Assembly (NCBI GenBank): GCA_947628205.1
Contig: CANQYX010000004.1
Location: 1-46,633, forward strand
Direction: 5' to 3'
DNA: 46,633 bases
Origin: an uncultured Clostridia bacterium
Lineage (GTDB): Bacteria; Bacillota; Clostridia; Christensenellales; UBA1242
Below are positions 2,968 to 46,546 of this stretch, piece after piece (position 1 is the stretch's first letter; the number at the start of each line of letters is the position of its first letter). The position numbers and the translations under genes are program-made. The notes under the pieces are model-generated. The model did no database searches. It worked only from the letters and a program-made list of their open reading frames with translations, and was not told where the DNA came from.

Positions 2968-3232
2968 TGAATTGATGAACATTAAAAAAAATAAAAATTA
3001 AAAGTTAAAAATTATAAATAATAAATTGTAAATAATAAATTGTAAAAAGTTAAAAATTAAAAATATAAAAAACAATTAAAAAAAATAAAAAAAGTAAAAA
3101 AGTAAAAAACTAAAAAATAAACTCGTAAAAAAATAAAAAATTATAAAAAATAATAAAAATTTTATAAAAAATCATTAAAAATATAAAAAAATTAGCAAAA
3201 AATAAAAATTTTTAATAAAAAAGGAGAAATTT

Positions 3233-7900: not shown

Positions 7901-10900
7901 CTACCCACTATTTAACGGTTGAAAACAGAACGTTAAGCGTTTACAACAACCAAAGGGAATTGCAACACACGCTTAATGGCCCAACATTTAGTTATGATGT
8001 GTTGGCAAAGGGGTCGTCTAACGTTGAACAACTTTATTTAATTGGGGCAAACCAAATTACAACCAACAATCCGCTAAATTCAAACTCTTATTTGATTGTT
8101 GAAATAAACACCGACCATGCGCTTGGCATGGCATATTATGGCGCAAATGTAACAGCTTTAAGAAATTTTGCAAATTTAACCAACAGCGGCAGCAATGGCG
8201 CAACGCGGCTTTATTATGACAACAACGGAACATTAACTGGCTTAAACGCTGCACACGCAACGGGTGCAGATTATTTGGCATTTAGTTTTAAACTTGGCAC
8301 AAACACAAAATATGAAATTAAAACGGTTGGTTTAAAATATTATCAACTTGAATTATATAAAGATGTGCAAAACGAAAGTTTCTTAACCAATTTCTTTTAC
8401 GCTAACCAACCAAACAAAGAGATAACTTTGTACGATAAAGACAGCGAAATTCCAGATAGTTTGGTGCTTTCTAATGACGAAAATGCGCGTGCGGTTGCCA
8501 TCTTAAACGTGGTGGGCAACAAAACGGTTGAAGGGCTTTATGTTATTACAAGAGAATATGTTACCAACATAGAAGCGGAAGGCGAAAAGGACACCACACT
8601 ATTAGATTATTATTTCTTGGTTGATAGAAATGGCGTTATTGTTTTGTCTAACGAAATTGACGATAAATCTATAAACGGTGGCTACATTTCGCTTGGGCTA
8701 AAAAATAACGAAATTCCATATAGCAGTTTTACAACAATTGGCGTGCCTTCTGGCTCAATTAGATTTGTGGAAAACGGCGCCACGCGCGAAATTGATTATA
8801 ACGTTTATTTAACCACAAACCGCCTTCCTCTTGTTTTGAACGTTCCTTTTGGCAAATATTTCTATTCTAACGAATTTACAGTAAAACCAAACAGCGTTGC
8901 CAACATGCAAAATGGCACAAATTATTATGGCAGTGAATATTTTGCGGGCAGATTGTCGTTTGACTTATACTTTAATGATATTCAGGGGCAACTCTCAGAC
9001 ATAACAACCGTTCCCGTTCATCTGTTATATTCGGTTGAGGCAAGCGGGCAAAAAGGGTATATTTCATATAACATTAAACAGCAATTAACCAACACAGAAA
9101 TTAAAAATTGCTTTGTTGCTGGCGATGGCGAGTTTATTGCCCTTCCGGGTGACTACATTTTAGTTATTAAAGATAATGTTGAGGGCGTTAACAATGTTAA
9201 AGACCAAGCACACCAAAAAGTTATTGGCATAAGGGTAACCAGCAATCTGCCAAGCACTTCGTTGTATGCGTCAAAAAACAAAGACACAAATTCGGTTAAC
9301 GACCAACGCGAATTTGCCGATTCAAGCAACCATTACAAATTAACAACCAACAAAGAGTTTGTTGTAATTGACATGCAAAACTTGGAAGAGGAAATATTTA
9401 ACGGCACCAACATCGCCGCTGAATTAGATTTGGATTATTTGCAAATAACCCAAACTCGCGATGGGGCAAATGTAGAGTATGTAAATTACGACCACGGGCA
9501 TAAAAGCGGATTGATAAATATAGACGATAAAAGCGATTACGCCGAGCGCACCCAGCAGGGCAACAAAACTGTTAATCGTAAAATTTGGCTAAACACATAT
9601 TTAAGAGATGAAAATGGCAAGGTTATAACCAACTTCGACGAGTTGAAAAAAGAATTAAAATACACCATTAAAGTTAGATACAATGTTGTTCAGGACGACA
9701 CAAATTATAGCGATTATTATTATCATCGAGAAGAGGGACAAACCGTTCCTTCGTTTGAGCGAGAATATGTGGTTGAAATTGATAGGGTTCCGCCTCAAGC
9801 CAACACCATCAATTTGGTGGCGCAAGATAGTTTGGCAGCTTTTTACGCACAAGGTGACATGTTTGAAAACTATGTTGGCGGCTTTGATGGCAGCGAAGAA
9901 ACTGAGGATGGAATATATTTTGTTAGAACATATAAAGATTATTATTCTAGTTCAACCAAAGATAGTGCCAACCTTTATGCCTTGCATGTAAACGCCGAAA
10001 CGTTATTTTCGATGGACGATATTGGGCGAATATATACCCGCCCACTATCAGACAATTTGGCAAATTTGCGCTTAACAATTCCGGCGAATGTAAAGAGCGG
10101 AGAATATTCCGAATTCCCTTCCGCCGATAGTTATGGGGATTTTGGCTTTACTGTTGGCAATTATTATGAAATTGTGGAAAAAGATTTGGCAGGCAACTCA
10201 ACCCAATACATAGTGTTCTTTGATAGCGTTGCAAGGCAAGAAAAACTGAATATGACGCTAAAAGCCAAAATTGCCTCGGAAGGAATGGTGCAAGAAAATG
10301 CACAAATTTCGTTTAATTTTGGCGAAACGGAAAATAAAAGTTATACAATTTTCGACATTTCGTCCTGCTCAACTAACGCACCTAAGGATAAATTTTATAT
10401 ATTGATGTTGTATCGCGGTGGCGACAATATTAACACCATTAAAACGGATTTTAAAACGAGTTTTGATGATGACTTTTCAAAAAATATTGTTAAGTTTTTA
10501 ACTGAATTTGGGCCGGGTAACTACAATTTAGTTTTGCTTTCGGAAAACAATCGTGTAACCCACACTATAAATTACCTTGAAGCAATTAGCGAGCTTTTGT
10601 TAGACGGGCTTAAAAAGACAGAAAATGGGCTAGATTATTTGGATTTAGCAGGTGCAAACTATGAACAGTCATCTGGCATAACAATTTATGCTCAAACAAT
10701 AAGGGTGCAACAAAATGAGGTTGACATAACATACAATTGCAGGGTAGAAGACGGGCAATTTAATTATTACGACGAACTGGGCAATCACCCAATCAACAAC
10801 CGATTAACCGAAATTGAAGGAAAAACACTTTTGGGCAGATACCGCATTACCGTTACCGACATGTTTGGCAAAAAATATCCGGCAATTTATTTAACCTTTA

Positions 10901-13320
10901 ACACAAACGAAACCGAACCAAGAGAAATTTCTTTTGGCGAGGATGGCAACGCAAATTATAGTTCATATAACGGGCATTATTATAGCTTTACTCAAGCAAA
11001 TATAAATTTCGACAATTTGGTTTATAACAGCTATTCAATAAATTACACCCTACTTGTTAAAGGCACATATAAAGAGTTAGACCTTAAAACTCTTGGCTAT
11101 ATTTTAGAAACGGTTGAAGATGGCAGAACTTATATCACCATTAAACCATATTATGAGGATAACAACAAAACGGGCGCGGTGTTGTCGGCAGAAATTAACC
11201 TGTCCAACAGCGAGGATGACGAAGATGGCTTCACTTACAGGGTGGTGTTGGACACAACCACGGGCAGCGTGGCATTGCGAGATAACGCGTTAGAGGGTGC
11301 AAACAAAGAGTATAATGTGGATATTAAGTTTGAAGGGGACAATCTGTTTGACACCACATATCCGGCAATATATTCCGGTTTGTTCTATCTATCTTGGTCG
11401 CCATCGTTGGCATCGCAAAGCAATTGGTATAAATTTAATTATGCAATTTACGAGCAAATGTTGGACGGAAGTTACCAGCGCACCGACCTAAACGATGTTA
11501 GCTATTACACAATTTCCACACAAGAAACCTCAACCGGCATTTATCGATTTGTTATTGAAGTTTTAAACACCAATGACTTGGTTTTGGGCTATAAGGTTTA
11601 CACTTTTGCAGTGCAGTCGTCTGGCACCGAAATCTATTCGGTTAAAACAGAGGACAACCGAGTGCTTACGCCAAATTCGCAATTTACCTTTGACGAGGTT
11701 GGAACGTTGTATAATGGTCAACTTGATGGAGTTGACGGAACAAGGTTGGATATTTCGTCAATTAAAATAAACATTCCGCTTTATGTTTACAATCATGAAG
11801 TGGTGGTGGATGTGCCAACAAAGGGCATAAAAGTTGAACTTAAAGAGTGGCACGTGTTTGAAATTACCCAAGCGGACATAACATATAAGTTTACAATTTA
11901 CCGAGTTCATTCGTTGCAAGACACATTTAGCTTGTATTTTGGCACACTGATTGTTTCGTATGCCGATCCTAGTCAGGCCAATTTAATTTCTAACGTGCAG
12001 TTAATTCAGGATGGCGAAACGCACCATGAAATTAGTTCGCCATTTGTCTCTTTAACCAACAACAAATTTTATGGCACGGGCAGTTTTGTTTTGTCGGCCG
12101 AACAGAACCTTGAAGCGGGCGATCAGGACGCGTTAAAAATTATTAGAAAAAACAACATTATAATTTCGATTTGGTGCAATGGCGAATTTGTTAAAAACTA
12201 TTCGGCAACAAACGTTGGGCAAACGTTTAATTTCGACATTTTAGGCAGCGGACAATACACCTTTGTGTTTAAAGATTTGGCAGGCAATCAGCACAACTTT
12301 AACCACAATGGCGAACTAGATGGCAGCAGCAGAAATGTGCCAGAATTGGAATTGGTGGTGTTGCGTGAAATTTCGCTTATTGTTAATGGAATGCAGGCAA
12401 TAAACAACGCTTATTATAATGGGCGAGTGCGCGTTGAAATTTACAGGCCAAGTTTGTTCTATGGCGACACAAGGTTCTTAAACTATTCATTCAGTTTAAA
12501 TGGCGAAAATTATACGCCTGTTGTTAACCAATATTCGTTTACTTTCAGCGGATATGGCACTTACAAAATTCAATATGGAATAAGGATAAACGAGCAACTA
12601 AGTTTAAACAAAGTGTTAACCTTCACAATCGTTAACGAAAACGAAGCAATGCACTCGTTTGATTTAACTCCACTATACAATTACAACATAACAAAACTTG
12701 TTAACAACAGGGGCGAGGAAACAAACAATAAGGGCGAAAGTTTAATTGAAAAATTGAACACGCTTTTAAATGCGCGTCAGGACAAAAACAAATATCTTTT
12801 AACCTACGAATTTTTGCAAGAGCATGCCGAAGAATTGGGTGTAACAAGTGGCAAGCAAATGTTGACTGTAACTTATGTGGTGGATGAAGGTGTTTATTCA
12901 AAGCGAGAGGTGGAATTTGCCTTTACGCTTAACAATCAGTTGCCAAAAATTGATTGCAATGTTGCGCCGGGTGGCACAACCAAGGATAGCTTTACCATAA
13001 CTTATGTGCCTTCAACAATTTATGAATATGTTGGGGATAGCGAACTTTATGTTAACGACATTTTAGTTTGTGGCATAAACGAAAGCTCGTTGAGTGTAAA
13101 CACACCGCAAACTTACAAGGTTTCGTTTAAAAAAGATGGTGCGGGCGATTATTATGTTGTGTTGCGTGGCTCATCTGGAACGGTTCATTCTAGCTTTAAA
13201 ATAACAATTAAAGAGCCACTAAATGTTTGGTCTATAATCGTTATTGTGGTTGTTGTGGCAATATTGCTGGCAATTGTTGGAACAATTATCTTCTTAAGAA
13301 AGAAGATGAAAATTCGCTAA
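4939..13320 (+). CDS. Giant (2793 aa) secreted protein with a C-terminal membrane anchor; function unknown, probably multi-domain beta-sandwich/Ig-like
   Basis: N-terminal signal sequence MKGKFKVLFNVVLCFTAILLAGICVFAGV. C-terminal hydrophobic helix VWSIIVIVVVVAILLAIVGTIIFL followed by RKKMKIR. Recurrent D-x-AGN module-end motifs (TDEAGNS at 7588, KDLAGNS at 10183, KDLAGNQ at 12274). N/Y/T/S-rich. No LPXTG, SLH or enzymatic motif seen. RBS aaaggggaag. Confidence 0.8.
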   Translation: MKGKFKVLFNVVLCFTAILLAGICVFAGVGKKGCVAQAFGEATEDYSLWDKNTNAIFSVEKVAIEAGENLTETKDFCSPLYTNTNLSDDNVLKKMYSYNFANSGQTPTNVGELERASAVYYDDIRDGTSRKTVVHDNDFVMLNNRPDSQGKYYYSENLTSSYKNGEGNAKMVYMQEAIMVSFGNYFSYTYLDEEGNTAEGFDKAGQVEYTDVNDDRVEKFNSGANIEWMRVSATRVRTGSQTVETLTVPGSRTYQNGRGLQKQDFVWIIPQTEGCEGYYEINVNFSYNGLTNGFTFGFYIVLGSSYNQTLTDNMHNDYSAYPSLKNASAVNGVNHFYLGEMDLTNNNYPTLSYDVTKYALDYVRVANGVSTSFSFNNVEDNGNMRLQSTKTTPSQTYNYDYPIGKVGTKGNIAVVVFTEIGDYSIHFRYKYNNEIAPNMNLQIADIQLSIHGFELKYAKAGFNEAEMRHLTFANNENASTAEMGVGVVVPDGYRSEQESSILETELGVIYDFDRNSTSEVGSLVKLESACVAANSNNLTVDEYVDEEQETGFNIDFAKTNQGSLWFVSTDSFVQRAGEEQGSFYYYGQNLKELKSAEIQPYSNIVSFNQTGYYLVFIKVNAQGVNKNYYSVYAFNYTADTVTVHTEKVDGEKTVSIASDAYTNKSVKIWWEEPGVFEREISVKFLKSKNFAVGDSQTFPSWQELALSIDTQGTTLQNGQIVGGQDGLGAVENGTSAIFLIKLQMVGKSASFRTFTIDKQPITGVQAYAVETKINRLGNVIYSPIKNQDGANVALLNGITDSYATLNWNSKENASGAKISVSYTRTPISPTNAYDVKEMSGWLTTKYTLGKTVGEIDLEKPDLNGELNSSSVLFESGIYLFTLTDEAGNSCRYLFVIDKTENYFKVTEQNGNSAFVTRDSLLYTDQVTVKAGQYKAIELPKTGNEKNDELFEFISAIEKQDGSLASLNYYSQSGTNSGVLASLFKLNGSTHYLTVENRTLSVYNNQRELQHTLNGPTFSYDVLAKGSSNVEQLYLIGANQITTNNPLNSNSYLIVEINTDHALGMAYYGANVTALRNFANLTNSGSNGATRLYYDNNGTLTGLNAAHATGADYLAFSFKLGTNTKYEIKTVGLKYYQLELYKDVQNESFLTNFFYANQPNKEITLYDKDSEIPDSLVLSNDENARAVAILNVVGNKTVEGLYVITREYVTNIEAEGEKDTTLLDYYFLVDRNGVIVLSNEIDDKSINGGYISLGLKNNEIPYSSFTTIGVPSGSIRFVENGATREIDYNVYLTTNRLPLVLNVPFGKYFYSNEFTVKPNSVANMQNGTNYYGSEYFAGRLSFDLYFNDIQGQLSDITTVPVHLLYSVEASGQKGYISYNIKQQLTNTEIKNCFVAGDGEFIALPGDYILVIKDNVEGVNNVKDQAHQKVIGIRVTSNLPSTSLYASKNKDTNSVNDQREFADSSNHYKLTTNKEFVVIDMQNLEEEIFNGTNIAAELDLDYLQITQTRDGANVEYVNYDHGHKSGLINIDDKSDYAERTQQGNKTVNRKIWLNTYLRDENGKVITNFDELKKELKYTIKVRYNVVQDDTNYSDYYYHREEGQTVPSFEREYVVEIDRVPPQANTINLVAQDSLAAFYAQGDMFENYVGGFDGSEETEDGIYFVRTYKDYYSSSTKDSANLYALHVNAETLFSMDDIGRIYTRPLSDNLANLRLTIPANVKSGEYSEFPSADSYGDFGFTVGNYYEIVEKDLAGNSTQYIVFFDSVARQEKLNMTLKAKIASEGMVQENAQISFNFGETENKSYTIFDISSCSTNAPKDKFYILMLYRGGDNINTIKTDFKTSFDDDFSKNIVKFLTEFGPGNYNLVLLSENNRVTHTINYLEAISELLLDGLKKTENGLDYLDLAGANYEQSSGITIYAQTIRVQQNEVDITYNCRVEDGQFNYYDELGNHPINNRLTEIEGKTLLGRYRITVTDMFGKKYPAIYLTFNTNETEPREISFGEDGNANYSSYNGHYYSFTQANINFDNLVYNSYSINYTLLVKGTYKELDLKTLGYILETVEDGRTYITIKPYYEDNNKTGAVLSAEINLSNSEDDEDGFTYRVVLDTTTGSVALRDNALEGANKEYNVDIKFEGDNLFDTTYPAIYSGLFYLSWSPSLASQSNWYKFNYAIYEQMLDGSYQRTDLNDVSYYTISTQETSTGIYRFVIEVLNTNDLVLGYKVYTFAVQSSGTEIYSVKTEDNRVLTPNSQFTFDEVGTLYNGQLDGVDGTRLDISSIKINIPLYVYNHEVVVDVPTKGIKVELKEWHVFEITQADITYKFTIYRVHSLQDTFSLYFGTLIVSYADPSQANLISNVQLIQDGETHHEISSPFVSLTNNKFYGTGSFVLSAEQNLEAGDQDALKIIRKNNIIISIWCNGEFVKNYSATNVGQTFNFDILGSGQYTFVFKDLAGNQHNFNHNGELDGSSRNVPELELVVLREISLIVNGMQAINNAYYNGRVRVEIYRPSLFYGDTRFLNYSFSLNGENYTPVVNQYSFTFSGYGTYKIQYGIRINEQLSLNKVLTFTIVNENEAMHSFDLTPLYNYNITKLVNNRGEETNNKGESLIEKLNTLLNARQDKNKYLLTYEFLQEHAEELGVTSGKQMLTVTYVVDEGVYSKREVEFAFTLNNQLPKIDCNVAPGGTTKDSFTITYVPSTIYEYVGDSELYVNDILVCGINESSLSVNTPQTYKVSFKKDGAGDYYVVLRGSSGTVHSSFKITIKEPLNVWSIIVIVVVVAILLAIVGTIIFLRKKMKIR

Positions 13321-15250: not shown

Positions 15251-15419
15251 TAAAATTATCTTAACAATTTTAAATTAAAATGTAAAATAAATTTTAAAAT
15301 TTTTTAAAAAATTTTTTAAAATTTGCATAAAAACACGCAAAAACCGCAAAAAATTAAAATTTTTCACGCCATTTTATGTTTTTAATAAATTTGTTTGTTT
15401 TGCAAATTTAAACAAAATT

Positions 15420-17095: not shown

Positions 17096-17327
17096 GACCT
17101 TATCCCGAAGGCACGAGGTTGGGTGGGTGAACGTATTAGGCATCGGGGTCCCCACAAAAAGTTGTTTGAAGTGGGGGTATAGATTTTGCCCCGCCGTCTA
17201 GTGAACTCAACTAACCGAGTGCCAACGACTTAATCTTGTCCTTATTTGCCAAGGCACGAGGGTAATTGGGCGAGCGATTTAGGCGGATTAGGCCCCGCCG
17301 TTTAGCGAGCCTAATTGCCCGAGTGCC
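17096..17327 (-). repeat. Tandem pair of L-family long-hairpin elements (inverted relative to 2709-2967), one carrying a nested G-family hairpin (17144-17193)
   Basis: 17096-17222 is homologous to the reverse complement of 2816-2967. 17237-17327 is homologous to the reverse complement of 2709-2801. Arms gggtaattgggc (17260-17271) / gcctaattgccc (17309-17320). The last 17 nt overlap the ATPase 3' end. Confidence 0.85.
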
Positions 17328-19878: not shown

Positions 19879-20394
19879 ATGGGATTTGAAAATATTGAAC
19901 TACGGGTTAAGCAACCTTATCCGCAAATTGAGGGCGCAACAGATGATTTGCAAACTGTGGCGGTGTTAAAAGATTTGGCAAACGGGCGAGATGGTGAATT
20001 GTGCGCAATTTTAACCTACATTTTTCAATCGACAATTGCGGATAAAACTAACGATGACATAGGCAAAATTTTTGAAGAAATTGCAATTGTGGAGATGTGC
20101 CATTTGGGGCTTCTTATGCACGCAATTTGCGATTTTGGCGGCACTCCAAAATATGAAATAAGCAGCGGAGCACCATTTAATATTAATAACGTGAATTATA
20201 ACACCAAGTTAAAGGACATTCTGGATATAGACATACGCGAAGAACAGGGTGCAATTGCAAATTACACTCAAGCCATAAAAATGGTTAAAAACCAAAGTTT
20301 AAAAGATTTATTTGCACGCATAATTTTGGACGAACAAAAACATATTGATGCATTAAAACAAGTCCGCGCCCAGGTTCAATTTTTGTCAGTTTAA
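19879..20394 (+). CDS. CotJC-like / manganese-catalase-family ferritin-like protein
   Basis: Blocks GRDGELCAILTYIFQ, IAIVEMCHLGLLMHAI, DIREEQGAIANYTQAI and ILDEQKHIDALKQV parallel the four-helix metal-binding blocks of B. subtilis CotJC. Start moved to ATG 19879 (RBS aaggggat) from the TTG at 19816. Confidence 0.6.
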   Translation: MGFENIELRVKQPYPQIEGATDDLQTVAVLKDLANGRDGELCAILTYIFQSTIADKTNDDIGKIFEEIAIVEMCHLGLLMHAICDFGGTPKYEISSGAPFNINNVNYNTKLKDILDIDIREEQGAIANYTQAIKMVKNQSLKDLFARIILDEQKHIDALKQVRAQVQFLSV

Positions 20395-20600
20395 CAAAAA
20401 ATTATTAAAAATTTTAAAAAATAGTAAAAATTAAATAAAAAATACAAAAAATTAATAAAAAATTAAATATTTTTAAAAATTTTTGTAAAAACGTTAAAAA
20501 AATAAATTAAATTTGCAAAAAATCATAAAAAATTAAAATAAAAATATAAAAAATAATAAAAATTTTAATAAAAATGCAATAATTTGATAAAAATTTATAA

Positions 20601-21392: not shown

Positions 21393-21416
21393 AAAAATAC
21401 GCATTTTTGCGTATTG
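21393..21416 (-). terminator. Hairpin identical to 20601-20624; likely terminator of the minus-strand PRC-barrel gene
   Basis: aaaaaatacgcatttttgcgtatt. A T-run is present only on the minus strand. Confidence 0.55.
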
Positions 21417-21443
21417 TCATGTTGAGCGTAAGCGAAACATCTA
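21417..21443. repeat. S-family hairpin unit (GT/AC variant)
   Basis: gtcatgttgagcgtaagcgaaacatct. Same as the reverse complement of 44613-44639. Confidence 0.8.
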
Positions 21444-23621: not shown

Positions 23622-25082
23622 ATGAAGGTTAGCGCGCAGGATACAACCAAAGAAATTCAGCAAAAATTGCATCAAAGCAGTGATGTTAAAACACGCTCGG
23701 TGCAATTTTTTGGCACGTCGGTCAGTTTAATTTACATTGCCGACATAACCGACACTCTGCTTATGAACAACTCGCTGGTGTTCCCCATGGTTAGTTTTTC
23801 AAACGAGGTTTCGCGCGATGTGGTTAAAGAGTTGAAAGACAAGGTGCTTTCCAACCACGAAGTTAACGAATTTGAAGATGTTAAAGGCGCGATTGATGGC
23901 TTGCTTAAAGGCATGACGCTAATTTTGGTGGATGGCGCGGACAAAATTCTTGCCTGCGACATGGAAAAAATTACCACCCGTGCGGTTATGGAGCCACCAA
24001 CCAGCGTGGTTATTAAAGGTCCGCGTGAAGGGTTTACAGAAAGCATCAAATATAACTTTGCGCTAATTAGAAAACGGGTTAGAACGGATGATTTAGTGGT
24101 TAAAACCATGGAAATTGGCGAACTTACTAAAACACAGGTGGGCGTTGTTTATTTCAATTCGGTGGCGGATAAAAAAATTGTTGACGCCATAACAAAAAAA
24201 CTTAAAGAAATTAAAATTGATGGGGTGTTGGATGCACATTATCTTATTTCGTATTTGCAGCGCAACAAACACTCGCTTTTTAAACAGATTGGCGATGTTG
24301 AAAAGCCAGACATTTTAGTTGGCAAAATGCTTGAAGGGCGAGTTGGCATTTTGGTGGATGGCAGCCCGATTGCGCTAACCTTGCCCTTTGTTTTAATTGA
24401 AGATTTGCAAAATAGCGATGACTATTACAGCCAGCCTATCCGCGTGGCTTTTGTGCGCATTTTGCGCCTAATTGGCGTTATTTGTGCGGTGGTTTTGCCG
24501 GGAGTTTATGTTGCGCTTGAAATTTATCATTATAAAATTTTGCCCACGCAGTTTTTGGTTACAATTATGAACACCACGCAAGGCATTCCGTTTTCGCCTT
24601 TTATGGAAATTTTGTTTTTGGTGCTGCTGTTTGAAATTCTTTACGAAGCCAATTTGCGAATGCCTCAATATTTTGGTATGGCCATGAGCATTGTGGGCGC
24701 GCTAATTTTAGGCGAAACAACGGTTAACGCCGGTTTGGTTTCGCCGCCTGCCGTTATGATTGTGGCACTTTCGGGCATAACGTTTTACATCATTCCCAGC
24801 CAAGCGGCGCAGTTTAGCATTTTAAGGTTGTGCGCAATTGTAATTGGCGCGTGCTTAGGGCTTTATGGCATGATGATTTTTTGCGTGTTCATTCTATCGT
24901 ATCTATCCAATTTCGATAGTTATAAATCTGCCTATCTTGCGCCTAGCGCGCCCTACATTGAAAACGACCAGCAAGACCTGTTTAAGCGCGCTAACATTGC
25001 CGAAATGAAAAAGCGGCCGAAATCCATTTCCAACAACCGCAAAAACAATATAAGGAGGGGCAAGGATGACGCTCAAAGTTAA
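23622..25082 (+). CDS. Spore germination receptor subunit A (GerA/GerKA family)
   Basis: Typical GerA-family soluble N-terminal domain (REGFTESIKYNFALIRKRV, VGVVYF, GVLDAHYL, GRVGILVDGSP) followed by about 5 TM helices. Confidence 0.8.
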   Translation: MKVSAQDTTKEIQQKLHQSSDVKTRSVQFFGTSVSLIYIADITDTLLMNNSLVFPMVSFSNEVSRDVVKELKDKVLSNHEVNEFEDVKGAIDGLLKGMTLILVDGADKILACDMEKITTRAVMEPPTSVVIKGPREGFTESIKYNFALIRKRVRTDDLVVKTMEIGELTKTQVGVVYFNSVADKKIVDAITKKLKEIKIDGVLDAHYLISYLQRNKHSLFKQIGDVEKPDILVGKMLEGRVGILVDGSPIALTLPFVLIEDLQNSDDYYSQPIRVAFVRILRLIGVICAVVLPGVYVALEIYHYKILPTQFLVTIMNTTQGIPFSPFMEILFLVLLFEILYEANLRMPQYFGMAMSIVGALILGETTVNAGLVSPPAVMIVALSGITFYIIPSQAAQFSILRLCAIVIGACLGLYGMMIFCVFILSYLSNFDSYKSAYLAPSAPYIENDQQDLFKRANIAEMKKRPKSISNNRKNNIRRGKDDAQS

Positions 25083-26250
25083 TTATAGGCAACTCTCTAT
25101 TTTGGTGTTTATGAGTTTTATCGCGCTAAAATTTTTGGCACTTCCAAGCTTAATGTATCTGGACAGCGAAAACATGAGCTGGATTGTTGCGTTGGTTATA
25201 ATGGTTATTGACGGGCTTTATGTGTTTTTGCTGCTAGATTTGATGCGCAAATGCAAACACCGCAACATTTTAGATTTTATGACGGCCACGCTTGGGCCGG
25301 TTATGTCGCGCGTGTTTTTAGTGGTGCTTATGCTTAAATATGCGCTGGTTATTGCAAACATCTCTAAGGGGCTTGAATTTTTTGTGGTGGAAAATTTCTA
25401 CGAAAAACTAAACTGGGTGGTGTTTGTTTTGCCGCTGCTGCTGTTAACTGGTTTTATGGTGTATAAGGGGGTTAGAAACATTGCGCGCGTAAGCGAAATT
25501 ATTTGTTGGGCAATAATTTTTGGCTGCCTTTATTTAGCGGTTAAGTCGGTTATGGGCGTTGAGCCACTAAACTTTTTGCCGCTGTTTGAAGATGGGGTAA
25601 CGCCACTTTTTAAAAGTGGGTTTAACCATTTAAGTTGGTTTGGCTCGTGCACATTTATGTTTATGCTGTTTGGCAAAGTGGATTTTTCGCGCGAAAAAAT
25701 TGGGCAGATGATTAAATACATTGTGTGCTCCATTTTGCTGGTTATGTTAATTTTCTTTATATTTTTTGGCCTGTTTGAAGCCACCGCGCCCATCCACACC
25801 TTTGCCATAAGTGACATAAGCCAATTTTCAAGCGGACACAGTTCAATTGACGAACTTTCTTGGCTGGTGGTTGCGCTTTGGGTTACCGCGCAGGCAGTGC
25901 AGTTGGCGTTGTATAGCTATTGCATGGTGGAAACAATTAAGGCACTGTTTAACATACGCAGCAACACCTTCCCTATTATATTTGTGTTGTTATACATTTT
26001 TTTGTGGAGTTATGTTGGCGAAATGACTGTGAGGCTTGAACGCGTGTTTTTAACGCCATATGCATCGATTGTAACGCTGGTTGCGCAATATGTTTTGCCA
26101 TGGCTTATGCTTATTGGCTATGGCACAATGGGGAAAGCGAAACGCCAGCAATTTGAAATGTCAACCGAACAAAACGCAAAAGAGAGTTTGCAAAACAGCA
26201 AAAATAATCGCGCTAAAACTGCCAAGGCGGTGAAAAATGAAAAAGCTTAA
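25066..26250 (+). CDS. Spore germination receptor subunit B (Spore_permease/APC-like, about 10 TM)
   Basis: Polytopic membrane protein beginning ..YRQLSILVFMSFIALKFLALPS. Overlaps the upstream A-subunit gene by 17 nt, as is usual in gerA-type operons. Confidence 0.7.
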   Translation: MTLKVNYRQLSILVFMSFIALKFLALPSLMYLDSENMSWIVALVIMVIDGLYVFLLLDLMRKCKHRNILDFMTATLGPVMSRVFLVVLMLKYALVIANISKGLEFFVVENFYEKLNWVVFVLPLLLLTGFMVYKGVRNIARVSEIICWAIIFGCLYLAVKSVMGVEPLNFLPLFEDGVTPLFKSGFNHLSWFGSCTFMFMLFGKVDFSREKIGQMIKYIVCSILLVMLIFFIFFGLFEATAPIHTFAISDISQFSSGHSSIDELSWLVVALWVTAQAVQLALYSYCMVETIKALFNIRSNTFPIIFVLLYIFLWSYVGEMTVRLERVFLTPYASIVTLVAQYVLPWLMLIGYGTMGKAKRQQFEMSTEQNAKESLQNSKNNRAKTAKAVKNEKA

Positions 26251-27511
26251 CACCATTTTTTCGCCACGCAAACTTGTTGTGCTGTTTTTAATTATTTTGG
26301 CCGTTTTAACCGTGCCAAAACTTGATGCCCCTGCCATGAGCCAAACGGATGCAATTGTAACCATGCTGTGCATGGATTTAGATGGGCAAGATGTGGTTAT
26401 GTCGGCAACCGTTTTAACGCCGGGGCAGGACAATGTTGCCAACTACCAAGTTTTTAAAGGCAAGGGCAAAACCTTTGGCACGGCGGTGGATTCGCTTTCA
26501 ATAACCATGGGCAAGGAAATGGGTTTTGCTCAGTGCGAGGTGGTTGCCATGGGCGAAAAGTTATGCGAAAGCGGCGTTATGCCCGCGTTAGATTATCTAA
26601 CACGCACCAAAAAGGTGGGCAGAAATTCTTATCTTATTGCCTTTAAGGGCGATGTGGAAGAGTTTTCGCAAGCAATGGCGGATTTAAGCAAGGAAAAATC
26701 GCTTACCCTTGAAAATATTATGAATTTCGACAGCCGATATATCGTTTCGCAGGATAGCAATATAGAAAGTTTTTACACCGGCTATTTTAGCGACATTTCG
26801 CTTGGCCTTATGCCAAAAGTTAGTTTGGAAACTGAGCAGCAGGATAGCGCAATCAAAATTGAGGGGCAAGATTCATCGTCTAGCGGCGGTGGCGGCGGCG
26901 GAAGTTCGGGTGGTTCGGGCGGTGGCACAAGCGGTGGCTCGGGTGGCGGACAGCAAAACCAGGGCAAATTCTTTTTAAACGATGGCAGTGTTACAGTTTT
27001 TAAAAAGGGCAAAAAGTTTATAGATTTAACCACCGAGCAGGTGCAAAAAGTAAACTTTTTTGTTAACAACGCCCAGCAAGGCACAATCGTTTTAGAAAAT
27101 GTGGATGACGAACTTTACAACAATTCCACCGTGCTTGTGGATATTGTTAGAAAAAAGAATTTTATTTCAGTGCGCTTTGATGGCGACACACCAGTGTATA
27201 AATCTACAATGGAATTGGTGGTGTTCGTGGAAGAGGTTGACGAAAACAATCCGTCCAAAAAAATGTTAAAACGCAACAACGAGTTTTTAACCAACAATTT
27301 AATAGAACGCATTAAACAAAATGTAACCGGACAGATGGAAGAAATTGTGGAATTTTGCAAAACAAACCAGATGGATTTGTTTCAAGCTTATCAGCATTTT
27401 TACAAAATAAACAACAAGCCATTTAAAAAATATTTAAACCGCGTTGGTAAAGAGAACTTTTTAACCGATGTTAAGTTTGAATATGAAATTAAAGTTAGCA
27501 ATGAATATTAA
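26237..27511 (+). CDS. Spore germination receptor subunit C (Ger(x)C family), atypical
   Basis: Position in the operon (14-nt overlap with subunit B). N-terminal hydrophobic segment followed by AIVTMLCMDLDG (the equivalent of the GerC a.v.alGiD block). Lacks a lipobox Cys and carries a 26-aa Gly/Ser insert. Confidence 0.6.
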   Translation: MKKLNTIFSPRKLVVLFLIILAVLTVPKLDAPAMSQTDAIVTMLCMDLDGQDVVMSATVLTPGQDNVANYQVFKGKGKTFGTAVDSLSITMGKEMGFAQCEVVAMGEKLCESGVMPALDYLTRTKKVGRNSYLIAFKGDVEEFSQAMADLSKEKSLTLENIMNFDSRYIVSQDSNIESFYTGYFSDISLGLMPKVSLETEQQDSAIKIEGQDSSSSGGGGGGSSGGSGGGTSGGSGGGQQNQGKFFLNDGSVTVFKKGKKFIDLTTEQVQKVNFFVNNAQQGTIVLENVDDELYNNSTVLVDIVRKKNFISVRFDGDTPVYKSTMELVVFVEEVDENNPSKKMLKRNNEFLTNNLIERIKQNVTGQMEEIVEFCKTNQMDLFQAYQHFYKINNKPFKKYLNRVGKENFLTDVKFEYEIKVSNEY

Positions 27512-27513
27512 TT

Positions 27514-27539
27514 ATGAGGGAGATAACCCCTCATTTTTA
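27514..27539 (+). terminator. Terminator of the ger operon
   Basis: atgaggg-agataac-ccctcat followed by tttt. Confidence 0.7.
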
Positions 27540-27610
27540 ATAAAAACAGTCAGTTGCGCGGATTTAATTTAAAATTTTTAAAAAATTTTTAATTTTTTAG
27601 TTAAAATCGC

Positions 27611-27641
27611 TTGACAGGGGGGGGGGGCAACGTGCTAACAT
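27611..27641 (+). promoter_or_regulatory. Promoter with an 11-nt poly-G tract in the spacer
   Basis: TTGACA (27611-27616), G x11 (27617-27627), caacg, TGc-TAACAT (27633-27641, extended -10). The spacer is 19 nt as written. Confidence 0.55.
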
Positions 27642-27708
27642 GAATATATAGGGCAAAAATGTGGAAAAATAAATAACCACATAAAAAACAGCACAGGGTG
27701 GAGGAAAG

Positions 27709-28854
27709 ATGTTTAAATCTCGAACAAAATTTTTAACAATTATGGCATGCCTTTCATTTTTGCTGGCATGCGGAACATTTGTTTTTTGCTTAGATCGCCA
27801 ACAACTCGATGGCAGTGTTAACATTCAATACACCGCGTCGAAAGATTTTTTAACTTACAAATTAAATACTGCACAGAATGGTTGGGTTGTAACTGGTTTT
27901 TCTGAAAACAAAAGAGAAGGTAGAACCGCAATTGAAATCCCCAATGAGCATATTCAAGACGGTAAATCCTTACCTGTTACAGAGGTTGGTTCAAGCGCGT
28001 TCTACTCCAAGTCTATTTTTACAAGTGTAAAGATTGGGGATAATGTAACGACAATTGCACTTTATGCATTTGGAGGCTGTACCGGTTTAACAAATTTGGC
28101 AATAGGAAATAAAGTAACTATAATTAACGCATCCGCTTTTAGCAATTGCACAAGTTTAACACATTTATCAATCCCCTCTAGTGTAACGACTATTGATACA
28201 AATGCATTTTATAATTGCAAAGGAATAAAAGGGGATCTTATCATTCCAGATAGTGTAACCCGTTTAGGTAATGGTGCGTTTCAATCTTGTGCGGGGATAG
28301 AAAATGTAATTATAGGGTCGGGTCTTAAAACCATGGGAAATGATGTTTTTGACGATTGTTCTTCTTTAAAAACTGTAACGATTAATTTCGGAATTACATA
28401 TATAGGAAGTCACGCTTTTGCTGATTGCACTCAATTGATAGACGTTCAAATGCCGGAAAGCATAATTGATATTTATTCTTATGCATTTTACCGTTGTTCT
28501 GCATTAAAAAGAATCAATATCCCAACTAGTGTAGTCAATATAAAAGTAGATGCTTTTTGTGGAACAGGATTAACCAGTGTAACTATACCAGCTGCTGTAA
28601 ATTTTATTGATGCCTTCTTTAATTGTGAAAAATTAAACGAAGTGATTATTGATAGTCCAACAATATATAAAGCTGTCTCGAGTGAATATGACAGTAATGG
28701 AAGTTTAACATATTACATCAAAACCGGCGGAACAATTAAAATATTACAAACAATTGACGATAATTCAAACACTTATTTGAACGATAGAGCAAATTTTACC
28801 AAATCTACAACTACAATTGATGGAAAATCGTATAACGTTTACACAAAAAAATAA
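27709..28854 (+). CDS. BspA-type leucine-rich-repeat (LRR_5) surface protein, probable lipoprotein
   Basis: N-terminus MFKSRTKFLTIMACLSFLLACGT has a lipobox-like LLAC. Repeated IP.SVT.I...AF..C..L modules (e.g. VTEVGSSAFYS, VTTIALYAFGGCTGLTNLAIGNKVTIINASAFSNCTSLTHLSIPSSVTTIDTNAFYNC). RBS ggaggaaag. Confidence 0.8.
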   Translation: MFKSRTKFLTIMACLSFLLACGTFVFCLDRQQLDGSVNIQYTASKDFLTYKLNTAQNGWVVTGFSENKREGRTAIEIPNEHIQDGKSLPVTEVGSSAFYSKSIFTSVKIGDNVTTIALYAFGGCTGLTNLAIGNKVTIINASAFSNCTSLTHLSIPSSVTTIDTNAFYNCKGIKGDLIIPDSVTRLGNGAFQSCAGIENVIIGSGLKTMGNDVFDDCSSLKTVTINFGITYIGSHAFADCTQLIDVQMPESIIDIYSYAFYRCSALKRINIPTSVVNIKVDAFCGTGLTSVTIPAAVNFIDAFFNCEKLNEVIIDSPTIYKAVSSEYDSNGSLTYYIKTGGTIKILQTIDDNSNTYLNDRANFTKSTTTIDGKSYNVYTKK

Positions 28855-28875
28855 GAGGCAATTGCCTCTTTTTTA
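28854..28875 (+). terminator. Terminator of the LRR gene
   Basis: agaggcaa/ttgcctct palindrome followed by ttttttatt. Confidence 0.75.
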
Positions 28876-28878
28876 TTA

Positions 28879-29170
28879 GTCATGTTGAGCGAACGCGGGG
28901 CCCCCACAAGAACTTTGTTTGCAGTGGGGTTATAAGTGAGTCGAAACAACTAGATCCTTCGCTTTTACCCCATTTCAAATAAAATTCTCATGGGGACCCC
29001 GAACGCTCAGGATGACTTGTTCAACACAATGCACACATATTGTCATTCTGAGCGAAGTGAAGAATCTAAAAAAAGAGGCGAAATGCCTCTTTTTATGTTG
29101 AGATTGCCACGGCAAAATCATGGTGATTTTGCCTCGCAATGACAAGATCCTTCGACAGGCTCAGGATGAC
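28879..29170. repeat. Mosaic cluster of nested S-, G- and A-family hairpin units
   Basis: Six parts. 28879-28951: GT/AC S-unit split by a G-unit (28896-28930). 28952-29016: CC/GG S-unit split by a G-unit (28967-29001). 29042-29067: TC/GA S-unit. 29070-29095: extra hairpin aaaaaagaggcgaaatgcctcttttt. 29100-29143: 44-nt A-unit. 29145-29170: CC/GG S-unit ending 3 nt from the pheT stop. Confidence 0.85.
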
Positions 29171-34208: not shown

Positions 34209-35153
34209 ATGTTAAATTTAATTGTTGCACCTTATGAAATAAGCGAAAATGCCGAAAAATATGCAAAACGTCTTGTCAGTTTTTTGAAGGAACAAAAAAT
34301 TGAATATGCGGTTTATTTCCACACCAGTTTAGACGATGTTGCAAAAAGCGTAAATGAAAGTTTGCTTTTGGGCGAAACTGAGTTTGTTATTGTTGGCGAA
34401 GATGCCACTGTTAATGCGTTTATAAATTCGGTTAAAGATTTGTCTAAAATTAAGCTTGGTATTGTGCCAACTTCAAATCATGACGATTTTGCCAAATTTT
34501 TAGGGCTTAGCACCAACCCAATTCAGGCAATAAAAGATATTTTGCTAAAACAAGTTGAGCCGGTGGACTATTTGGTTTGTAACGACATTAAAGTTGTTAA
34601 CAACATTTTAATTGGGGCAAGTGTGGAAGTGTTTGAAAAATATAACGAACACAGGGTTAAAAACTTTATAACCCAAAAACTTTCTATTATGCAATATGCT
34701 GGCAATTTTGAGGGCGTGGAATTGACATTAGATTTTAAGGGCAACAAAAATGTAACCGAAACGATTTACGAACTTTCAATTGCCAACGGTGGTTTAAGCC
34801 AGGGCAAAAAAATAAGCCCGCTTGCCAATGTGCAGGATGGTCTGTTTAATTTGAACTATACTGCCTTGCCAGAAAAAGAGCAAAGAAAAAAATATTTGTC
34901 TTTATTTAAAAATGGCGAACAAATATATAAAGAGGCAACAAATCAGTTTTGGCTGGAAAGTTTAAAAATAATGCAAGCGGAAAATAAAATTAAGGCCTTG
35001 GTTGATGGCCGCGTTGTTAATTTTGAAAATATGAATGTTTCGGTTGTTGAAAATGGGTTAAAGTTATTTAGAAATTTGAACAACGAAAAATTTGTTGAAA
35101 ACAATTTTGAAAAAAATAAAAAAGAATCTGAGGCAAAACCTAAAAGAAAATAA
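34209..35153 (+). CDS. Diacylglycerol/lipid kinase-fold protein (YegS/BmrU-like) with degenerate signature motifs
   Basis: Layout ..FVIVGEDATVNAFINSV....KLGIVPTSNHDDFAKFLGL.. parallels DAGK_cat ..vv.GGDGTvnevvngl....lgiiP.GTgNDfar.lgi.. However, GGDGT reads GEDAT and GTGND reads TSNHDD. Confidence 0.5.
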   Translation: MLNLIVAPYEISENAEKYAKRLVSFLKEQKIEYAVYFHTSLDDVAKSVNESLLLGETEFVIVGEDATVNAFINSVKDLSKIKLGIVPTSNHDDFAKFLGLSTNPIQAIKDILLKQVEPVDYLVCNDIKVVNNILIGASVEVFEKYNEHRVKNFITQKLSIMQYAGNFEGVELTLDFKGNKNVTETIYELSIANGGLSQGKKISPLANVQDGLFNLNYTALPEKEQRKKYLSLFKNGEQIYKEATNQFWLESLKIMQAENKIKALVDGRVVNFENMNVSVVENGLKLFRNLNNEKFVENNFEKNKKESEAKPKRK

Positions 35154-35241
35154 TTTTAAAAAATTGCAAAAAATTTTTAAAAAATTAAAAAAATAGCCAA
35201 AAATTCAAAAAAATACAAAAAAACAGTTAAAAAATTGAAAA

Positions 35242-35270
35242 ATGCAAAATTTTTTTGCATTTTTTGTTTT
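35242..35270 (+). terminator. Terminator after the lipid-kinase-like gene
   Basis: atgcaaaa-ttt-ttttgcat stem followed by tttttgtttttt. Confidence 0.6.
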
Positions 35271-35381: not shown

Positions 35382-35573
35382 ATGATTGAAAGTTTTGACA
35401 TGTTATATAAACGCCTTTTAAATTTGGAAAAGAGGTTGGAAAAATATTATAAAAAAATTTACATCGAAAACGAATTAGATTTTGTTATGAACGGAACCTA
35501 TATTTTAAAAGATGAATTAGATAAAATTTTAGACGGAAGTTACATCTTAGGAGGGAGTGATGGAGAGAATTGA
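35382..35573 (+). CDS. Small hypothetical protein (63 aa) translationally coupled to the repeat protein
   Basis: ATG 35382 with RBS gggagaaaaaatt. Coiled-coil-like N-terminus. Its TGA stop (35571-35573) lies 14 nt inside the next gene. Confidence 0.5.
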   Translation: MIESFDMLYKRLLNLEKRLEKYYKKIYIENELDFVMNGTYILKDELDKILDGSYILGGSDGEN

Positions 35574-37395
35574 AGAATTAAAGCAAGAGCTTTTAAAGCA
35601 AAAAAAGGCAATTGAAACGAAACATGGAAAGGTTGTGGTTGCAAATTTAAACCCCAGCCCAAGCGAAATTACGGCGGGAATAGACACTATTTCTGCAATT
35701 GAGGCAAATTTGGACGATATAACTGCAACACAAGCCGATGTGCTTAAAGGCAAAAAGTTTATAGATTCCACTGGCAAAATGGCTGAGGGGAATTTAAAAA
35801 ATGTTGATTGGCGTAGCACAACCGCCAGTGTGGCAGATGTGGTTGAGGGCAAGAAATTTGTAGATTCTAATGGCGACCTGCAAACTGGCGAAATGAAGGA
35901 CGTTGACTGGGAAAACACCACAGCAACGCAAGCCGATGTTTTAAGCGGAAAAAAATTTGTTGATGCAGCGGGTGAACTGGTTGATGGCGCGTTAGAAAAA
36001 ACAGATTTTTCGGTTGTAACTGCTGGCGAACAAGACGTGTTGCAAGGCAAGCAATTTTATAATTCAACTGGCGCGCTGGTTGATGGCACAATGAAGGACG
36101 TTGACTGGGAAAACACCACAGCAACGCAAGCCGATGTTTTAAGCGGAAAAAAATTTATAGACCAAAATGGCGATTTAATTTTAGGCACAATGAAAGATGT
36201 TAACTGGGAGGCAACTACAGCCACAACCGCCGATGTTTTGCAGGGCAAACAATTTGTAGATTCTTTAGGCAATTTAGTTGAAGGCAGTTTAAAGGATTTG
36301 GAAATAGAAAGTGTAACTGCAACCGAGCAGGATGTAAAGCAGGGTAAAAAGTTTTTAACCGCTTCGGGCGAACTCGCCGAAGGCCAATTAGAAGAAGTAG
36401 ATTTTAGTGTGGTTACAGCCGAAGAGAACGATGTAAAACTGGGCAAACAGTTTTTAGATTCAACCGGACAATTGAAAGACGGAACTTTTGAGGCAGCCGA
36501 TTGTAGCGAAGTTACCGCAACCGAGCAAGATGTAAAACAGGGCAAAAAGTTTTTAACCGCTTCTGGCGAGCTAAAAGAGGGCACGCTAAAAGATAATTCG
36601 GATTTATACATATACATGCCTGTAAAAAAGACCGCCGACCCTATAGCCGAAATAGATTATGTTTTTGCCGATGACCTCACAGAGGTTAAAATGGGGTTGT
36701 TTAACTCTACGCCATACAAAATGAACATCTGGTTAAACCCAAACACCACGCACATTAACGATGGTGCGTTTAGCGCGTATTTCCGCATCAGCTTAATGAA
36801 TTTTAACGAGCTTTCGTCGCTTAAGTTTATTGGCAAAAGTGCTTGCAGTTCGGTTTATGGGGTGGACACAATGAACATACCGGAGAGCGTAACAACGATT
36901 GAAGCACGCGGGTTGGAAAACTGCGCACTAAACTCGTCCGGCATTAGATTTACCGCCAAAATGTATACACTTGGAGATTATCCTTTTGGTTGCACCACAA
37001 ACTATGTGCCACTTGACACAATCGAGTTCGATGCAGCGAGTAGAATTTTGATAACAAGCGTTGGAATGTGCTATGGCTTTACATGCGACCGAGAAATTGT
37101 TTTGCCAAGTACCACCAAATATATAAGTGATAACACTTTTTCCTTGTCGGAATACAACAGCATTGTTCTGCCAGAAAAACTTATAGACGTTGGCCGAACT
37201 TCATTCTATAACCCAGAAAGAACAAACTGCAAAATGGTTACGTTCAAAGGCGAAAAACCGCCTAAATTTGACTCGTTAGTTTTCCATCCTAACATACAAC
37301 CAGTGTTAAAGATTTACGTTCCTGATGTGTCTGTTCAAGAGTATAAAAACGCGTTGCCAGATTATAAAATTTACCCTATGAGCGAAAGGCCATAA
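35560..37395 (+). CDS. Signal-less protein: coiled-coil N-terminus, nine 33-aa tandem repeats, C-terminal BspA-type LRR domain
   Basis: RBS aggaggga 5 nt before ATG 35560. Repeats of consensus TAT.aDVl.GKkF.ds.G.l.eGtmkdvdw.. The C-terminal region (NIPESVTTIEARGLENC..., VLPSTTKYISDNTFS..., VLPEKLIDVGRTSFY) resembles LRR_5. Confidence 0.75.
   Translation: MERIEELKQELLKQKKAIETKHGKVVVANLNPSPSEITAGIDTISAIEANLDDITATQADVLKGKKFIDSTGKMAEGNLKNVDWRSTTASVADVVEGKKFVDSNGDLQTGEMKDVDWENTTATQADVLSGKKFVDAAGELVDGALEKTDFSVVTAGEQDVLQGKQFYNSTGALVDGTMKDVDWENTTATQADVLSGKKFIDQNGDLILGTMKDVNWEATTATTADVLQGKQFVDSLGNLVEGSLKDLEIESVTATEQDVKQGKKFLTASGELAEGQLEEVDFSVVTAEENDVKLGKQFLDSTGQLKDGTFEAADCSEVTATEQDVKQGKKFLTASGELKEGTLKDNSDLYIYMPVKKTADPIAEIDYVFADDLTEVKMGLFNSTPYKMNIWLNPNTTHINDGAFSAYFRISLMNFNELSSLKFIGKSACSSVYGVDTMNIPESVTTIEARGLENCALNSSGIRFTAKMYTLGDYPFGCTTNYVPLDTIEFDAASRILITSVGMCYGFTCDREIVLPSTTKYISDNTFSLSEYNSIVLPEKLIDVGRTSFYNPERTNCKMVTFKGEKPPKFDSLVFHPNIQPVLKIYVPDVSVQEYKNALPDYKIYPMSERP
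35722..36612 (+). repeat. Nine in-frame 99-bp tandem repeats inside the CDS
   Basis: Unit length is exactly 33 codons. A 66-bp stretch is identical at 35893-35958 and 36091-36156 (198 bp apart). A second near-identical pair lies at about 36313 and about 36511 (also 198 bp apart). Confidence 0.9.
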
Positions 37396-44586: not shown

Positions 44587-44689
44587 GTTATCCTGAACGA
44601 AGTGAAGGATCTAGATGTTTCGCTAACGCTCAACATGACATCGTCGCAACACGCCCCGATTATGTCATCCTGAGCTTGCCGAAGGATCT
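44587..44689. repeat. Three S-family hairpin units
   Basis: 44587-44612 gttatcctgaacgaagtgaaggatct (CC/GG). 44613-44639 agatgtttcgctaacgctcaacatgac (GT/AC, inverted). 44664-44689 gtcatcctgagcttgccgaaggatct (CC/GG). Confidence 0.85.
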
Positions 44690-46242: not shown

Positions 46243-46494
46243 AGATTCTTTGACTCGTTTATTTACCCCATATCAAAGCAAGTTCTCATGGGGACCCCGA
46301 ATTACCCCACTGCCGAACAAAGTTCTTGTGGGGACCCCGAGATCCTTCACTTCGTTAGGATGACATAAGGTTGAGATTGCCACGGTGGTTTGATGGTCAA
46401 ACCGCCTCGCAATGACATGCTGGCGGTGTCATCCTGAGCGAACGAAGTGAGTCGAAGGATCTGGATTTAGATTCTTCGCTTTGCTCAGAATGAC
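46243..46494. repeat. Mosaic cluster of S-, G- and A-family hairpin units
   Basis: Seven parts. 46243-46257: truncated S half. 46265-46299 and 46304-46339: G-units. 46340-46364: CC/GG S-unit. 46373-46416: 44-nt A-unit. 46428-46462: CC/GG S-unit. 46469-46494: TC/GA S-unit. Confidence 0.85.
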
Positions 46495-46546
46495 AAAGGG
46501 TGTTTTGGCTGCACACAAAAAATTTTTAATTAAAATTTGCGTTTGT

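Follow-up and report, generated by a model that had tools for sequence, protein, structure and literature searches.

A poly-G tract in the predicted promoter spacer of a BspA-type LRR surface-protein gene is a candidate phase-variation switch in a spore-forming gut Bacillota lineage

The window, by which we mean the whole stretch of 46,633 nucleotides that was analyzed, carries on its plus strand a gene for a 381-residue LRR protein (27709-28854), which lies between a germinant-receptor operon and the convergent genes pheT and pheS. The operon, gerAA-gerAB-gerAC (23622-27511), encodes GerAA (23622-25082), GerAB (25066-26250) and GerAC (26237-27511), which match the Pfam families GerA, Spore_permease and GerAC, respectively. 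In a terminator scan, the operon ends in a hairpin that resembles an intrinsic terminator and has a T run after it (27514-27534, plus strand), and a second terminator-like hairpin with a T run lies directly 3′ of the LRR stop codon (28853-28870, plus strand), ahead of pheT and pheS. Since the gerA operon ends in a terminator, the LRR gene needs a promoter of its own, and since there are terminators on both sides, the gene is expected to be monocistronic and its promoter must fall within 27541-27708. The window also codes for SpoIIR, SleB, YpeB, NusG, ribosomal protein L1 and an N-acetylmuramoyl-L-alanine amidase of the Amidase_3 family, which is CwlD-like by its sporulation context. The presence of SpoIIR, SleB, YpeB and GerA identifies the host as an endospore-forming member of the Bacillota. 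Based on a run search and on Logan contigs, the window matches four sequencing runs, all of which come from one rabbit-gut metagenome sample; a search for RNA runs that contain the gene returned none.

The surrounding sequence has several features of its own. Residues 213-238 of GerAC (26873-26950) form an unusual Ser/Gly-rich linker, SSSSGGGGGGSSGGSGGGTSGGSGGG, between the N- and C-terminal domains. An ORF of 2,793 residues (4939-13320), which adjoins an acyl-ACP thioesterase gene, has no match at all in Pfam and contains internal diverged repeats, for example at 6767-6815 and 9146-9194. Many genes in the window have, on their 5′ side, a long intergenic block in which A and T tracts are phased every ∼10-11 nt (1854-1988, 2985-3235, 15275-15355, 20375-20560, 27563-27606 and 35142-35250, from repeat analysis); judged from their sequence, these blocks look like curved-DNA or UP-element regions. 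Repeat analysis also found a modular, REP-like interspersed palindromic repeat that is intergenic and follows gene ends, with the core TACCCCA...TTCTCATGGGGACCCCGA plus companion modules; copies are found at 2858-2893, 17143-17179, 28886-28919, 28964-29003 and 46262-46341, with further copies at 21415-21443, 28870-28895 and 44612-44640, and paired modules at 29033-29070 with 46466-46503 and at 29097-29144 with 46370-46417. In the rabbit-gut Logan contigs, the depth of this repeat is ∼31 compared to ∼4 for unique sequence, which indicates that there are many copies per genome. The REP-like repeat has no Rfam match, and the Rfam search of the 46.6 kb returned no RNA family, not even a T-box before pheS; a reading of the LRR 5′ region as a riboswitch or leader was dropped on the strength of this result.

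Upstream of the LRR gene, we read on the plus strand a −35 hexamer, TTGACA, at 27611-27616, which is a perfect match to the consensus and is followed by eleven uninterrupted G residues (27617-27627), by CAACG, and by an extended −10 element, TG-c-TAACAT, at 27633-27641. The G11 tract fills most of the −35/−10 spacer, which runs from 27617 to 27635. The sequence-only reading had described this anatomy, with a spacer of 19 nt that would become 17 nt after the loss of two G residues (G9), and direct reading and counting of the bases confirmed it. Directly 5′ of the −35 hexamer is one of the A/T-rich blocks in which A and T tracts are phased (27563-27606, plus strand); it resembles an UP element and may act as one, judging from its sequence. 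If the start of transcription is placed ∼7 nt after the −10 element, according to standard promoter geometry, the predicted 5′ UTR covers 27648-27708 (plus strand) and includes a Shine-Dalgarno sequence, GGAGG, at 27700-27704 (plus strand). The consensus promoter scan accepts spacers of 16-18 nt, and the promoter in the window is absent from its list because the spacer is 19 nt. The best explanation of the arrangement TTGACA-G11-CAACG-TGcTAACAT is that the G11 tract constitutes the spacer of a predicted housekeeping-sigma promoter with an extended −10 element.

The tract is unique in the window, as the sequence-only reading had also maintained: in all 46,633 bases, which have a G+C content of 37.9%, G11 is the sole run of G or C that reaches six residues, and the next longest run is 5. 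Under a first-order Markov model, the expected number of G runs of at least 11 in the window is 0.004. The same model predicts, based on dinucleotide content, ∼7 runs of G or C of at least six residues, compared to the single G11 observed; runs of this length are otherwise depleted in the window. Even the Gly6 stretch of the neighboring gerAC gene is coded without any G run longer than 3.

The product of the downstream gene belongs to the class of surface proteins that had been claimed for it from the sequence. The 381-residue protein matches the Pfam family LRR_5 (BspA type, PF13306) in three stretches with an E value of 1.3e-70, which upholds the assignment of ORF 27709-28854 to the BspA-type LRR proteins. 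In the AlphaFold2 model of the protein (mean pLDDT 86.5), residues 5-29 form an N-terminal helix and the chain up to residue ∼42 is a disordered linker, which is followed by a small beta cap, an LRR solenoid and a C-terminal module rich in beta structure. The best matches to this model in a Foldseek search were 4fs7 from Bacteroides ovatus (E = 5e-14) and 4gt6 from Faecalibacterium prausnitzii, both LRR proteins from the cell surface of gut bacteria, and further structural matches were found to TpLRR of T. pallidum (6mlx, target TM-score 0.81) and to the pneumococcal antigen PcpA (4cp6). The PF13306 match and the TpLRR-type solenoid fold together place the protein among the BspA/TpLRR-type LRR proteins. 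The further claim that the product is of a class that is usually phase varied holds as well, in that an N-terminal hydrophobic helix precedes a TpLRR/BspA solenoid like that of the gut-bacterial cell-surface LRR proteins and PcpA.

The label of lipoprotein is doubtful. We took as a lipobox the pattern [LVI][ASTVI][GAS]C at the end of the h-region of the signal peptide. The sequence LLAC at residues 18-21 of the window protein, and of its relatives P0004 and P0031, fits this pattern, but P0003 and P0241 have LLLC, with a non-canonical residue at −1, and P0242 lacks a Cys there. A signal/anchor helix that is uncleaved or of type I is no less likely than a lipoprotein signal, while the more general conclusion that this is a secreted or membrane-anchored surface protein is well supported. 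At its other end, the protein has a family-specific module of ∼75 residues (28630-28854 in the window), which is also found in P0004, P0031, P0003 and P0241 and has the pattern …IYK…G.L…TG…L…F T.ST…Y.VYT; the module is predicted with high confidence to be rich in beta structure and contains no known anchor motif.

The LRR gene belongs to a small family that is defined by its N-terminal module. In a profile search built on four full-length members, generic long LRR proteins dominated the results. An exhaustive HMMER search with a profile of the N-terminal 90 residues found 6 matches among 1.84 billion representative proteins, and because these are the only matches, the family is lineage-specific and rare. 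Among the LRR matches, the N-terminal 66 residues are common only to P0004 (91% identity), P0031 (76%) and P0003 (68%), and P0001, P0004 and P0031 do not differ in their first 43 residues. P0004, P0031 and P0003 also have the C-terminal module of ∼75 residues, and their LRR cores are 43-50% identical; in the family layout, the modules at the two termini are conserved and the LRR core between them is variable. When GTDB genome contigs were scanned with the whole protein, the only matches were unrelated LRR_5 proteins, with 25-41% identity. One metagenome-contig locus from a scan by N-terminal alignment (L011) was discarded as spurious, as it has neither a tract nor a gene start.

Within the rabbit sample itself, there is evidence of additional genes with the same 5′ end. 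Logan contigs match 27647-27830 at ∼96% identity and with roughly twice the local depth. The coding part of this common 5′ cassette, as delimited by variant contigs and protein alignment, is 27709-27830 (plus strand) and specifies residues 1-41, in which a basic N-terminus is followed by a hydrophobic helix and then by a short linker. After the cassette, we find at least four other in-frame continuations, which diverge after 27830, 27836 or 27858 (...IQYVALPPTNDL, ...IQYVAPPQIWGT, ...YTAPKTEDLWNG and ...YELNSAQDGWV, the last of which is P0004). The coding differences in the variant cassette are all synonymous. Because there are at least four other continuations, the population has at least five genes with a common 5′ cassette, which comprises at minimum the part that codes for the signal peptide; in one variant cassette, the common stretch also takes in most of the 5′ UTR, starting at 27647. 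The pattern is consistent with gene conversion or a recent duplication, after which the LRR part diversified. With respect to tracts in the paralogues of the window organism itself, there are hints from two Logan contigs of low depth (X3), which have G residues at their end or start.

To compare the promoters of family members, we fetched contigs for three relatives (P0003, P0241 and P0242). The contig that encodes P0242 (L013) starts 67 nt 5′ of the ATG and the promoter is outside it, such that upstream DNA can be read in three members, the window and the loci of P0003 (L010) and P0241 (L012). The two relatives are tract-bearing paralogues from one Logan run (SRR27728185). The promoter of L010 reads AAATCGCTTGACT-G10-CAA-TGcTAAACT and that of L012 reads GGATTGCTATT-G8-CAAA-TGgTAAAAT; the hexamer of L010 that corresponds to the TTGACA of the window is TTGACT. 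Thus, an uninterrupted G tract lies in an extended −10 promoter in all three members with readable upstream DNA, which share ancestry in these promoters and are not three independent observations. The consensus scan lists both relatives, with TTGACT-16-TAAACT for L010 and TTGCTA-17-TAAAAT for L012, each TG-extended, and in both loci the site that spans the tract is the only promoter-like site 5′ of the gene. The conserved layout consists of a −35 element, a pure G run, CAA and TGnTAAnnT, and within it the tract and spacer vary, from G11 with 19 nt in the window to G10 with 16 nt in L010 and G8 with 17 nt in L012. Tract length therefore differs between homologous loci in which the flanking promoter elements have been kept. 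Sequence identity in the flanks, within 25-60 nt of the tracts, is only ∼50-75%, yet all three tracts are free of interruptions, and each tract is the only run of G or C of at least six residues in its sequence. The gene neighborhoods are unrelated, with the gerA operon and pheST in the window, holB, PSP1 and greA at L010, and acpP and a gene for an M23 peptidase at L012. In L010, 5′ of the promoter of P0003, there are also two direct copies of an element of ∼90 nt (2700-2880; …CCACTAAGACAATTTCCCAAATTGGCTT…TGGTAGGCTTATGCCTAAGGA…).

The window contains a second LRR_5 gene (35557-37395), which encodes 612 residues and has eight tandem repeats of 99 nt (33 residues) before its LRR part. This gene is outside the MFKSRTKFL family, with no signal peptide and no G tract upstream, which indicates that the tract is a feature of this family rather than of LRR genes at large. 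We also considered that such tracts might be generic to LRR_5 genes and rejected this idea, because the tract is absent both at 35557-37395 and at eight unrelated LRR_5 loci (∼72 kb), in which there is no run of G or C of seven or more residues.

We also examined the window locus itself in other assemblies. An exact look-up of the GerAC protein yielded three ENA contigs from other samples, and the exact LRR protein yielded one more contig (L009). One contig, L014, spans the tract and has G11; L016 ends after 10 G and L015 after 6 G, while L009 starts with 6 G and has small allelic indels in the 5′ UTR region. L014 is identical to the window from 23737 through the tract, then has seven substitutions (27677-27822) and ends at 27830. 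Positions 3911-4094 of L014 correspond to 27647-27830 of the window; the substitutions in coding sequence are all synonymous, and the contig ends at the point at which the paralogues diverge. This downstream part is the paralogue-type cassette that is seen at double depth in the Logan contigs, and L014 is either a chimeric join via the common promoter or a real gene-conversion allele. Two assemblies, the window and L014, span the tract of the window locus, and both have G11, with the reservation that L014 is possibly chimeric. Differences in tract length were seen in the homologous promoters (G10 and G8) and not for the window locus (G11 in both spanning assemblies, n = 2).

Most short-read contigs break at the tract. 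The coverage of the assemblies is ∼2.5-5x, and the Logan contigs end in or near the tract, with none spanning it. Two of the Logan contigs include 2 G of the tract and then stop, and the k-mer at that point is the same whatever the tract length. Because of this, and because coverage is low, the breaks are not evidence of heterogeneity in tract length; low coverage or sequencing error in homopolymers explains them just as well.

Considering these observations together, we think that the G11 tract is probably a contingency switch in a promoter spacer, of the type found in porA, tp0126 and vlp; we infer both the slippage and its effect on expression from the sequence. According to this model, the long pure G homopolymer would gain or lose G residues by slipped-strand mispairing in replication, and each step would shift the separation of the −35 element from the −10 element by 1 nt, modulating initiation. 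In the window, G9 would provide the optimal spacer of 17 nt, G8 and G10 would provide intermediate spacers of 16 and 18 nt, and G11 would provide a poor spacer of 19 nt, such that the prediction for the assembled G11 state is low expression or none. The optimum for L010 would be G11, and its spacer with the observed G10 is 16 nt; L012 would be at its optimum with G8. Expression of the LRR protein would then vary between cells, in a heritable and reversible manner. Extended −10 promoters depend less on the −35 hexamer, and the effect of spacer length could for this reason be weaker than on/off. The proposal that the tract is a phase switch is strengthened by the G10 and G8 tracts at the same place in the promoters of two relatives, but the finding of G11 in both assemblies that span the window locus, at ∼3-5x coverage, runs against it.

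The invariant G11 in these two assemblies would be expected if the tract is instead a static, conserved promoter element, which could adjust promoter strength as a rigid G/C spacer or be bound by a regulator specific to the family. In that case, regulation would determine expression, and the differences in length among paralogues would have become fixed long ago. We consider this rather unlikely. The conservation of CAA after the tract and of TGnTAA is consistent with a protein-binding or promoter module, and some homopolymers adjacent to promoters have been shown not to switch (PMC2268961). However, a static element should hold the spacer near 17 nt, and the spacers that we observe, 16, 17 and 19 nt, are those expected of independently drifting switches rather than of a static, optimized promoter. 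Moreover, in those bacteria for which measurements exist, uninterrupted runs of 8-11 G are inherently unstable (PMC3639595, PMC7864442), and the fact that this genome otherwise avoids runs of G or C of at least six residues suggests that such runs are costly here too.

The contingency-switch reading also requires that the promoter be placed correctly. If the true promoter is elsewhere, for instance in the A/T-rich block (27578-27607), the tract would be at the start of the transcript or 5′ of the core promoter, and could act through reiterative transcription, through the length or structure of the 5′ UTR, or through the distance to an upstream element. Indeed, the consensus scan finds a weak site, TTAAAA-18-TAAAAT, at 27578-27607 (9/12 matches), but matches of this kind occur by chance in A/T-rich DNA (13 found versus 8.2 expected), and no equivalent site exists in L010 or L012, where only the site that spans the tract is promoter-like. 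With a perfect TTGACA abutting the tract in the window, and a TG-extended −10 element following the tract in 3/3 loci, we judge a promoter elsewhere to be quite improbable. An artefact of sequencing or assembly, such as the poly-G of two-color chemistry or a misjoin, might be suspected from the fact that most short-read contigs break at the tract. This explanation was rejected and is effectively refuted, because the tract sits between unique flanks, G11 (L014) and at least 10 G (L016) are found in independent assemblies of other samples, and G10 (L010) and G8 (L012) are found at the homologous site of diverged genes in a different sequencing project.

The family as a whole may extend the proposed switch beyond a single gene. 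If paralogues each have their own tract, the population could display different combinations of LRR proteins. The corresponding model is a multi-locus contingency system of an uncultured, endospore-forming commensal from the rabbit gut, in which at least five dispersed LRR surface-protein genes with near-identical cassettes, kept so by gene conversion, each have their own poly-G switch and generate combinatorial repertoires within a clone. We advance this model tentatively, as a possibility to be taken seriously, and we stop short of calling it probable.

Slippage in a promoter spacer is a well-known mechanism; what is new is its proposed occurrence in a spore-forming gut Bacillota lineage, in a tiny LRR family and with a near-identical common 5′ cassette. 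Most known switches of gut Bacillota and Bacteroidota are invertible promoters. If the candidate switch is real, it would, at the head of a family of adhesin-like LRR proteins, extend the mechanism of porA, tpr and vlp to a new lineage and a new lifestyle. Strategies like those of Vlp and Tpr have been described mainly in host-restricted pathogens with reduced genomes, and if the multi-locus model is correct, a free-living, spore-transmitted gut commensal would use such a strategy. According to a recent review, multi-locus phase variation mediated by repeats appears to be restricted to pathogens, which may reflect bias in sampling or in databases (PMC11868660). The conserved 5′ cassette together with the G tract provides a sequence signature with which such loci could be found in metagenome-assembled genomes. 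Furthermore, because short-read metagenome assemblies break at the tracts, genes of this kind are systematically split from their promoters in public assemblies.

The known systems resemble this locus in different respects; porA, tp0126 with the tpr paralogues, and vlp, maa2 and vmm come nearest in mechanism. In the sortase-dependent pilus of Bifidobacterium breve, the G tract is intragenic and acts by frameshift, not through promoter geometry. Replication slippage at this G tract serves as an ON/OFF switch (PMC9187656), and the system is similar to our case with regard to a Gram-positive gut commensal, a G tract and a surface structure, although B. breve is an actinobacterium. By gene class, the closest counterpart is Ca. 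Mycoplasma girerdii, in which at least 28 BspA-like genes were found and eight have length-variable repeats (PMC5476646); judged from metagenomic reads, this large family of BspA-type LRR surface proteins undergoes phase variation through simple-sequence repeats (PMC5476646). The repeats of Ca. M. girerdii are mostly coding (CA)n repeats that cause frameshifts, whereas the tract described here is a mononucleotide run in a promoter spacer and would act on transcription.

In Mycoplasma, indels in the spacers of vlp, maa2 and vmm switch transcription, and in M. hyorhinis a homopolymer of its own between −35 and −10 turns each vlp gene ON or OFF independently, with combinatorial surface variation as the outcome (PMC2268961). 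The T tract of the vpma promoter of M. agalactiae plays no switching role (PMC2268961). Like vlp, the genes studied here form a surface-protein family with a conserved 5′ region, in this case a common cassette that codes for the signal peptide. Citti and Wise reportedly found in 1995 that the vlp 5′ regions, comprising promoter, 5′ UTR and signal peptide, are highly conserved. The vlp genes differ in that they have poly-A tracts, are clustered and encode lipoproteins with repetitive C-termini, whereas the genes of this family have poly-G tracts and encode LRR solenoids of doubtful lipoprotein status, and the loci of the window, L010 and L012 are dispersed.

The arrangement in T. pallidum is similar in that several surface-protein genes, including members of one paralogous family, each have a poly-G tract at the promoter. 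The tracts of tp0126 and of tpr genes (E, G, J, F, I and L) are ∼7-11 G long and vary in length within isolates, and in tp0126 the tract lies between −35 and −10, with an optimum spacer of 17 nt (PMC7864442). The tpr tracts, on the other hand, lie just 5′ of where transcription starts rather than strictly in the spacer, and the products of this spirochaete pathogen are candidate outer-membrane beta-barrels. Both the variation and its effects on reporters have been measured in T. pallidum, while our candidate switch is predicted from sequence. In porA of N. meningitidis, as in the window, poly-G lies between −35 and −10 and changes of a single G alter the spacer; expression is high with 11G, ∼2-fold lower with 10G and 6- to 13-fold lower with 9G (PMC3639595). 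porA is a single-copy porin gene of a Gram-negative pathogen, whereas the candidate switch described here belongs to a paralogous family of LRR proteins in a spore-forming gut member of the Bacillota, and, unlike in porA, G11 in the window is not the optimum but makes the spacer too long, at 19 nt.
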